NCBI RefSeq assembly: GCF_003334405.1
Contig: NZ_QOWM01000004.1
Origin: Escherichia coli
Lineage (GTDB): Bacteria; Pseudomonadota; Gammaproteobacteria; Enterobacterales; Enterobacteriaceae
Direction: 5' to 3' (one strand)
DNA: 64,000 nucleotides
How positions within the stretch are numbered: the stretch's first letter is position 1; every line of letters begins with the position of its first letter. The notes below the pieces were generated by a model. It made no database searches. It worked only from the letters and a program-made list of their open reading frames with translations, and was not told the origin of the DNA. Positions 27,401 through 28,135 of this stretch are shown piece by piece. The position numbers and the translations under genes were made by a program.

Positions 27401-27443
27401 GGTTTATTCCTCATTGAGGGCGCTTTTATCATGTGTTGCTTAT

Positions 27444-27470
27444 TTATCGGCAAGGGACGGGTAATCTTTA
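27444..27470 (-). promoter_or_regulatory. Sigma-28 (FliA) class 3 promoter of flgMN
   Basis: Minus strand reads TAAAGATT-N11-GCCGATAA, a perfect match to the flagellar sigma-28 consensus, about 45 bp upstream of the flgM ATG, and just upstream of the flgA stop codon (27476). Confidence 0.85.
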
Positions 27471-27475
27471 ACAGC

Positions 27476-28135
27476 TTACAGGTTTATAAGAATATTCCCA
27501 TCTGCATCAACAACGCCGCTGACTACCTGTCCCGATACCATGCGCACCCGCGCATTCTGTGCGACGGCTGCATTGTTCAGCGCCTGACCTTCTGCGTTGG
27601 CGCTAAACCCATCACCGCTGGCGATCACATTGACGCGTTGTCCCGCTTTTACCCGCCATGCCTGGCGAAACTGGGTTAACTGGATAGGTTGATCGGGTGA
27701 TAGATCGCGCAGGCTAATGGCATCAACAAGTTGATTGATATCCAGCACCGTACGCGGTGGCAGGGTATCCAGCCGTCCGCGTTTCAGTTTGACATTGCCA
27801 GCTTCCAGCTTTCCTCCCCGCGCAATGGGCATCGCGGCAACCACATAATTTCCTGTGGCCTGTACATTAACCTGTAAATATCGTTTGTCGTTACCGCAGC
27901 GTGCCAACACATTCACATTGCCCCACAGGCGGGAATTATTGCTCATCGAAAGCAATGGCTGCTCGCATGGCGGTAGTAGATTGGGCGCTGTACGAATAGA
28001 AACACGAACCTCATCACTTACCCCCGCGAGTTGGGCGCTAAAAAAGTTGTGCAATTGCGATGTGAGATTGCTCGCCGTACTTAACGGACTGAACAGTATC
28101 GCGATGATCGCCACGCTACGTTTTATTATCAGCAT
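27476..28135 (-). CDS. flgA: FlgA, flagellar P-ring assembly chaperone
   Basis: ORF track; signal peptide MLIIKRSVAIIAILFSPLSTA; 219 aa. Confidence 0.93.
   Translation of the reverse strand: MLIIKRSVAIIAILFSPLSTASNLTSQLHNFFSAQLAGVSDEVRVSIRTAPNLLPPCEQPLLSMSNNSRLWGNVNVLARCGNDKRYLQVNVQATGNYVVAAMPIARGGKLEAGNVKLKRGRLDTLPPRTVLDINQLVDAISLRDLSPDQPIQLTQFRQAWRVKAGQRVNVIASGDGFSANAEGQALNNAAVAQNARVRMVSGQVVSGVVDADGNILINL

Follow-up and report, generated by a model that had tools for sequence, protein, structure and literature searches.

In sigma/anti-sigma feedback modules, such as that of sigma-E and RseA, the gene for the anti-sigma factor is transcribed by the very sigma factor that its product inhibits, and the flagellar anti-sigma-28 factor FlgM is alike in this respect. 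Unlike the anti-sigma factors of such modules, FlgM is inactivated by flagellar type III export rather than by proteolysis, and its gene additionally receives a sigma-70/FlhDC input. The class 3 flgM promoter of Salmonella enterica, PflgM, was reportedly dealt with by Gillen and Hughes in 1993 and by Wozniak and Hughes in 2008. Two promoters are distinguished in a review, namely P1, a sigma-70 promoter in the flgA-flgB spacer, and P2, a sigma-28 promoter upstream of flgM, together with a negative feedback circuit (PMC3861889), which is also described in a reporter study (PMC4295839). The closest described system is flgMp of E. coli K-12, in which FliA ChIP-seq identified the 28-mer TAAAGATTACCCGTCCCTTGCCGATAAA with a fold-above-threshold (FAT) score of 48 and assigned it to flgMN (Fitzgerald 2014, PMC4183435). 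According to the same study, overlapping flgAMN and flgMN operons are supported by its data, and the flgAMN operon is FlhDC-dependent. PflgM is a core part of the checkpoint by which the expression of late flagellar genes is tied to a completed hook-basal body; since FlgM is made from a promoter of its own target, sigma-28 activity is buffered and inhibition is restored after FlgM export.

Here we describe this locus in a window, the whole stretch of E. coli DNA that was analysed, of 64,000 nucleotides. The flgA-flgM region (1.8 kb) is 100% identical to many complete E. coli genomes, including that of the K-12-like strain ER1709, and the gene order annotated in identical E. coli records is murJ, flgN, flgM, flgA, flgB. 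The genes and intervals that frame the promoter are the following:

28290: start of flgB, divergent from flgA (open reading frame)
28136..28289: divergent flgA-flgB class 2 promoter region with the FlhDC site (FlhD/FlhC ChIP-seq peak)
28135..27476, minus strand: flgA, class 2 gene upstream of flgMN, into which its transcript reads through (open reading frame and RefSeq annotation)
27478..27476, minus strand: flgA stop codon, TAA
27475..27401, minus strand: flgA-flgM intergenic spacer, 75 nt
27400..27107, minus strand: flgM, anti-sigma-28 factor, 97 amino acids (open reading frame; RefSeq WP_000020880.1 on a 100% identical record)
27102..26686, minus strand: flgN, export chaperone and second gene in the flgMN transcript (open reading frame and RefSeq annotation)

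A sequence-only reading of the window had proposed a perfect sigma-28 promoter of the form TAAAGATT-N11-GCCGATAA at 27470..27444 on the minus strand, and exactly this sequence is found there, the full motif being TAAAGATTACCCGTCCCTTGCCGATAA, that is TAAAGATT-ACCCGTCCCTT-GCCGATAA. That reading had placed the motif upstream of the flgA stop codon, which is wrong: it begins at 27470, 5 nt downstream of the TAA at 27478..27476, and lies wholly within the 75-nt spacer with no overlap with flgA. In related flgM loci too the motif follows the flgA stop (76 of 76). Its parts and the start region that they specify are:

27463..27470, minus strand: -35 element TAAAGATT of the sigma-28 (FliA) class 3 promoter PflgM (sequence, ChIP-seq motif, conservation)
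27452..27462, minus strand: spacer ACCCGTCCCTT, 11 nt, of invariant length in 76 loci
27444..27451, minus strand: -10 element GCCGATAA, comprising the extended -10 GC and the core CGATAA (sequence)
27434..27438, minus strand: sigma-28 transcription start region (published leader 5' end at A27437 and the 18-22 nt rule)
27437..27401, minus strand: flgM class 3 leader, 37 nt (sequence)

The motif is far above chance expectation. Its exact pattern occurs once in the 64-kb window and in none of 100 dinucleotide shuffles. As a test independent of the consensus chosen in the sequence-only reading, we used a FliA weight matrix of 28 columns, built from 23 high-occupancy FliA ChIP-seq sites (Fitzgerald 2014, Table 2) with the window's own two sites excluded. 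On this matrix PflgM scores 27.3 bits and the runner-up 18.1 among the 128,000 positions scored in the window (mean -21, SD 8.2), while the top score over 50 shuffled windows is 22.9; only the tar promoter outscores it among the published FliA sites. The columns of the -10 element carry the highest information in the matrix. Against the textbook sigma-28 consensus, PflgM matches 15 of 16 positions with a spacer of exactly 11 nt. The description of the promoter as perfect thus holds for the -10 element GCCGATAA and the 11-nt spacer, but not for the -35 element, in which TAAAGATT has one mismatch to the textbook TAAAGTTT; as TAAAGATT is the consensus that the 23 ChIP-seq sites give column by column, the wording is nevertheless a fair one.

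Comparison with the published class 3 promoter of flgM, which had been suggested as a check, shows the 28-mer TAAAGATTACCCGTCCCTTGCCGATAAA of Fitzgerald to be identical to the site in the window; locus, sequence and flgA-flgM context are the same as in K-12, and there is no difference between the two. The centre of the FliA ChIP-seq peak maps to about 27433 in the window, approximately 25 nt downstream of the motif, and a downstream offset of this size is what its authors describe for promoter-bound holoenzyme (PMC4183435). Likewise, genomic SELEX with reconstituted sigma-28 holoenzyme gave a peak in the flgM/flgA spacer (Shimada 2017, PMC5493296), and this RpoF peak, 1129438, maps to about 27487 in the window. 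The exact sequence of the flgMN class 3 promoter has therefore already been mapped experimentally in E. coli, and it is a real, ordinary, textbook promoter. The biology of the flgMN promoter is established throughout and the finding adds nothing new to it; its value is that of a positive control, a genuine and validated promoter having been recognised from sequence alone.

The transcription start had been expected near 27435, and two lines of published evidence agree with this position. Fusions of flgM made "from +1" used the primers EHO-671, EHO-714 and MHO-240, all of which begin the 5' UTR at AACACATGATAAAAG (Romilly 2020, PMC7549644), and AACACATGATAAAAG maps to 27437, resulting in a flgM leader of 37 nt. 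At well-characterised FliA promoters, dRNA-seq places the start 18-22 nt past the centre of the motif (Fitzgerald, bioRxiv 10.1101/188474), a rule that predicts a start at 27438..27434 for PflgM. The exact start nucleotide is thus drawn from the literature or inferred. A start at about 27437 is absent from two genome-wide E. coli tables of transcription start sites (Kim 2012, Cho 2014), which come from one laboratory and give only the following position for flgM:

27466, minus strand: second published 5' end, the G of TAAAG inside the -35 box, attributed to sigma-70 by its authors

Kim 2012 lists a single flgM 5' end at 1129417(-) with 14 reads and a 66-nt UTR, and Cho 2014 gives a 5' end at the same coordinate with 21 reads and assigns it to sigma-70; by the authors' 66-nt UTR and their printed 51-mer, 1129417 is G27466 in the window. 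In Salmonella, a SalCom transcription start is cited as lying 17 nt from an RcsB box (Huesa 2021, PMC7913699), and judging from related Salmonella loci it would fall on the first T of TAAAG. This second 5' end is of low abundance and precedes the sigma-28 start by some 30 nt; either a weak sigma-70 promoter or the processing of flgAMN mRNA may give rise to it.

To assess conservation, we retrieved 80 flgM loci, taking one genome per species, and analysed the 76 with enough upstream DNA, which represent about 25 enterobacterial genera. In every one of these a sigma-28 motif is the top matrix match in the 250 nt upstream of flgM (19.9-28.3 bits). The -35 element is TAAAGATT in 52 loci, TAAAGAAT in 12, TAAAGGTT in eight, TAAAGAAA in three and TAAAGATA in one; the -10 element is GCCGATAA in 38, GCCGATAG in 31, GCCGATAT in three, and GCCGATGA and GCCGATAC in two each. 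The cores TAAAG of the -35 and GCCGAT of the -10 element are invariant (76/76). The motif starts 5-6 nt past the flgA stop in 62 loci and 26-114 nt past it in the remainder. In the alignment both boxes are at least 90% conserved, whereas the sequence of the 11-nt spacer is conserved at only 40-75% although its length is invariant; conserved boxes with a drifting spacer read as the signature of selection on the promoter elements and not on the DNA overall. Within the species, the stretch that runs from the flgA stop up to the transcription start (44 nt) has at least 99% identity in 5209 of the 5426 complete genomes of E. coli.

The Salmonella promoter resembles that of E. coli in beginning 5 nt past the flgA stop, in the -35 element TAAAGATT and the 11-nt spacer, and also in its dual class 2/class 3 logic and in the RcsB box that lies upstream. 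The loci of the subspecies arizonae and diarizonae differ from E. coli in having the -10 element GCCGATGA instead of GCCGATAA and TATAAT instead of TGTAAG across the flgA stop. Furthermore, the end of their -10 element lies 59 nt from the ATG, as opposed to 43 nt in Escherichia, where a GC-rich segment of about 17 nt in the leader, seen in other genera, is missing.

In addition to its own class 3 promoter, flgM had been proposed to be transcribed by read-through from flgA, giving the anti-sigma factor a feedback loop. Both proposals are borne out: the former by Fitzgerald 2014, by the review (PMC3861889), by a terminator scan and by the FlhDC peak, and the latter by the negative feedback on sigma-28 that the literature describes for E. 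coli and Salmonella. Our scan of the minus strand from 26500 to 28500 found no terminator-like site, whether between flgA and flgM or elsewhere, and the centre of the FlhD/FlhC ChIP-seq peak for flgAMN and flgB-J, 1130152 (Fitzgerald Table 1), maps to about 28201, in the flgA-flgB spacer. The combination of an unterminated flgA-flgM junction with an FlhDC site in the flgA-flgB spacer therefore supports transcription from both class 2 and class 3 promoters as well as negative autoregulation. From the sigma-28 start at about 27437, transcription proceeds through the 37-nt leader into flgM and then flgN. The two genes are also transcribed from the sigma-70 class 2 promoter that FlhDC activates upstream of flgA, with transcripts reading through from flgA into flgMN because nothing terminates them in the 75-nt spacer. 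FlgM binds and inactivates sigma-28, so that the class 3 promoter makes the anti-sigma factor negatively autoregulated. Once the hook-basal body is complete, export of FlgM leaves sigma-28 free, which raises flgM transcription and thereby replenishes the inhibitor. Given the observed sequence match, the binding of sigma-28 holoenzyme in vivo and in vitro, the conservation and the absence of a terminator, we regard it as nearly certain that flgMN has a sigma-28 class 3 promoter with a start at about 27437, that it is also served by class 2 read-through and that FlgM is negatively autoregulated.

How much each promoter contributes is a matter for which we depend on the literature or on inference, and the relative shares of the class 2 and class 3 promoters are disputed. 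In the RNA-seq data of Fitzgerald, fliA deletion lowers flgM RNA from 451 to 318, which is not significant, and under these conditions the class 2 promoter is the source of most flgM RNA; overexpression of fliA in a delta-flhD strain results in a significant rise and restores flgM RNA (PMC4183435). In a reporter study, class 2 activity is near background, the flgM promoter reporter tracks sigma-28 levels, and most FlgM is attributed to the FliA promoter (PMC4295839).

Two other explanations of the site can appeal to the small effect of fliA deletion. One gives the main role next to flgM to a sigma-70 promoter that overlaps the flgA end, with a -10 element across the stop codon, a start at about 27466-27470 and control by RcsB, the sigma-28 motif contributing little. 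It draws on the assignment of the 27466 end to sigma-70 in both E. coli datasets, on the Salmonella start 17 nt from an RcsB box which binds phosphorylated RcsB in EMSA, and on the perfect TATAAT that 56 of 77 enterobacterial sequences have across the flgA stop. In Escherichia, however, the corresponding sequence is TGTAAG, and the hexamer available in E. coli, whether TGTAAG or TAAGCT, lacks a good -35 element; the reads at 27466 are few (14-21) and could stem from a processing product of the flgAMN mRNA. A minor role for the sigma-28 motif is moreover hard to reconcile with strong in vivo occupancy by FliA (FAT 48), with the restoration of flgM expression by fliA alone without FlhDC and with clear purifying selection on the sigma-28 boxes. 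Such a promoter would at most be an additional one and no replacement for PflgM, and we consider this explanation distinctly unlikely. A generic sigma-70 scan found no minus-strand promoter near the site, its two matches being on the plus strand. We also rejected, as the source of the 27466 end, a sigma-70-like TTGATG-N16-TATAAA found by eye in E. coli (27510..27483), because its -10 element ends 17 nt before 27466 and the ATA at that codon is Escherichia-specific.

The other explanation would have PflgM be a fortuitous or non-productive FliA site, with flgM expressed only by read-through from flgA. Besides the modest drop of flgM RNA on fliA deletion, this could appeal to the observation that most of the 52 FliA sites of E. 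coli are intragenic, weakly active and not conserved, many intragenic ones yielding only unstable RNAs (bioRxiv 10.1101/188474). PflgM is, however, an intergenic site in the correct orientation 43 nt upstream of the flgM ATG, with one of the highest scores of all FliA sites in the genome. Its position and sequence are kept in about 25 genera while the spacer drifts, and flgM is driven when FliA alone is supplied. This explanation is already contradicted, and we give it almost no credence. The reading of PflgM as a functional sigma-28 promoter that acts alongside class 2 read-through is hence the one that we retain.

The RcsB box that figures in these considerations is located in the last codons of flgA:

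27500..27487, minus strand: RcsB box TGGGAATATTCTTA, its centre at about -56 relative to the sigma-28 start

It matches exactly the RcsB homodimer consensus TN(G/A)GAN4TC(T/C)NA, a pattern that is not rare (four found against 2.25 expected). The 14-mer TGGGAATATTCTTA is the reverse complement of, and thus identical to, the Salmonella intra-flgA box TAAGAATATTCCCA, which lies within the flgA coding sequence upstream of flgM and binds phosphorylated RcsB in EMSA, binding being abolished by a point mutation (Huesa 2021, PMC7913699). Of 77 sequences, 74 carry the box at this position. Across these 77 sequences the synonymous positions of the final flgA codons GAT GGG AAT ATT are 97-100% invariant, and at nearby Gly, Asn, Val and Ala codons of flgA the commonest codon accounts for 35-75%. 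The synonymous invariance at the end of flgA is best explained by the RcsB box. An UP element was considered for the same sites and set aside, since it is the box with which the invariant block exactly coincides and for which there is EMSA support; a contribution of an UP element may remain. The box is published at least for Salmonella, and its binding of RcsB and its regulatory role in E. coli are putative.

The box and the hexamer at the flgA stop might together constitute a third input into flgM, driven by sigma-70 and RcsB and independent of FlhDC and FliA, or else the box might allow RcsB to modulate the sigma-28 promoter directly from about -56. We put this forward tentatively, as a possibility that we think rather unlikely. 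Were there such an input, its element would be intact in most Enterobacteriaceae, as indicated by the TATAAT of the 56 sequences, and partly decayed in Escherichia, with its TGTAAG and a leader shorter by about 17 nt. The amount of anti-sigma factor would then be under the direct control of envelope stress.

Within the flgM leader, a mini-hairpin formed by CCUC (27419-27416), a loop of AAU and GAGG (27412-27409) includes the Shine-Dalgarno sequence. The block CCTC-NAT-GAGG is found in 58 of 58 long-leader sequences, with all four pairs always formed and no covariation. The idea of a structured or riboswitch-like leader was rejected, as the fold of a 58-nt leader is no better than those of shuffled sequences (z = -0.19), and a search of Rfam gave no family at or near the flgM promoter locus. 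When the 58 long leaders are folded together by RNAalifold, only the invariant 4-bp CCUC/GAGG hairpin is retained. Folds of single sequences show a variable GC-rich hairpin as well, which thus lacks support as a consensus structure. The first codons of flgM (1-9; 27400..27374 in the window) pair with the small RNAs OmrA and OmrB (Romilly 2020, PMC7549644). Control of flgM by NtrC was also considered and set aside: an NtrC ChIP-seq peak inside flgM, at about 27230-27310 in the window, is unconfirmed by the EMSA of its own authors. Farther downstream, between the convergent genes flgN and murJ, we noted one more element:

26656..26676, minus strand: GC-rich hairpin CCGGCCTG-CACTG-CAGGCCGG, read from the sequence

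It was missed by the terminator scan because it is without a T-run, and it probably marks the end of the flgMN and flgAMN transcripts.

The same window contains a second promoter of this type:

35590..35616, plus strand: PflgK, class 3 promoter of flgKL (FliA ChIP-seq site, FAT 47)

Like PflgM, PflgK begins exactly 5 nt past the stop codon of the upstream class 2 gene, in this case flgJ (stop at 35582..35584), and its operon is likewise served both by read-through and by its own sigma-28 promoter. It differs from PflgM in having a much weaker -35 element, TCAAGTCC, and scores 16.2 bits on the matrix as against 27.3.

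The last eight codons and stop codon of flgA (27476..27502, minus) are nearly invariant at their synonymous sites among 77 enterobacterial sequences, with GAT at 97%, GGG at 99%, and AAT and ATT at 100%, versus 35-75% for neighbouring codons. Two elements of the minus strand lie within this block:

27476..27502, minus: invariant block containing the palindrome GAATATTC
27500..27487, minus: putative RcsB box TGGGAATATTCTTA

The box recurs in 74 of the 77 sequences, and the same element of Salmonella flgA has already been published and validated by EMSA (Huesa 2021). The pattern is matched at three further places:

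2550..2563, plus: RcsB box pattern
5710..5723, plus: RcsB box pattern
22649..22662, plus: RcsB box pattern, TAAGACTTTTCCCA

The third of these resembles the validated osmB box TAAGACTTTTCTGA. The position of an FlhDC peak published for csgC is close to 2449. With four occurrences found in the window against 2.25 expected, the RcsB pattern is not rarer than chance.

A transcript 5' end at 27466 (minus) was recorded with 14-21 reads and assigned to sigma-70 (Kim 2012; Cho 2014). This position is the G of TAAAG, placing it within the -35 box of PflgM, the sigma-28 (FliA) promoter of flgMN. In Salmonella, a SalCom TSS lies 17 nt from the RcsB box (cited in Huesa 2021). In 56 of the 77 enterobacterial sequences, a perfect TATAAT runs across the flgA stop; the corresponding hexamer in E. 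coli is TGTAAG. The 5' end at 27466 may mark a third promoter, a weak one, or else a site of RNA processing.

Downstream of PflgM, the distance from the -10 box to the flgM ATG (27401..27443) is 43 nt in Escherichia (coli, albertii and whittamii), as against 57-66 nt in most other genera among the flgM loci of one-per-species enterobacterial genomes (L002-L081). The additional ~17-25 nt of these longer leaders form a variable GC-rich segment, which adopts a hairpin in single-sequence folds; RNAalifold shows neither consensus nor covariation support for this segment. A different element is shared by all leaders examined:

27409..27419, minus: 4-bp hairpin containing the flgM Shine-Dalgarno sequence, CCUC-AAU-GAGG

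This block is unchanged in every leader examined and, because it never varies, the CCUC/GAGG pairing is not separable from plain sequence conservation. The hairpin might make translation from the class 3 mRNA less efficient.

The second FliA ChIP-seq site and the additional matches to the FliA matrix, a weight matrix derived from 23 published sites with the two in the window left out, are:

35590..35616, plus: flgKL class 3 promoter, TCAAGTCC-N11-GCCGATAA
61299..61326, plus: matrix match
51160..51187, minus: matrix match
29524..29551, plus: matrix match

The flgKL promoter starts exactly 5 nt past the flgJ stop (35582..35584), the same spacing as that of PflgM past the flgA stop. Its occupancy (fold-above-threshold score 47; Fitzgerald 2014) is similar to that of PflgM despite a matrix score of only 16.2 bits. 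The other three matches, at 17.6-18.1 bits, outscore this genuine promoter, and none is among the 52 published FliA ChIP-seq sites. In this score range, FliA occupancy is not predicted by matrix score alone.

Within the flgM coding region an NtrC ChIP-seq peak maps to 27230..27310, and binding there was not confirmed in EMSA by the same authors (Brown 2014, PMC4066584). Beyond flgN lies a likely bidirectional transcript end, not called by the terminator scan because it is devoid of a T-run:

26656..26676: GC-rich hairpin CCGGCCTG-CACTG-CAGGCCGG between the convergent flgN and murJ

FlgO, a sigma-28-dependent, Hfq-bound sRNA, derives from the flgL 3' UTR (Melamed 2023, PMC10578931); no Rfam 15 family matched its locus, the flgL-rne intergenic region (38259..38453). 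Rfam matches at the gathering threshold were:

41664..42000, minus: RNase E 5' UTR element
43861..44029, plus: SraB sRNA
19880..19929, minus: PyrC leader
523..614, minus: ES056 sRNA
10709..10751, minus: ES036 (CssrF) sRNA

All five are expected in this region of E. coli.
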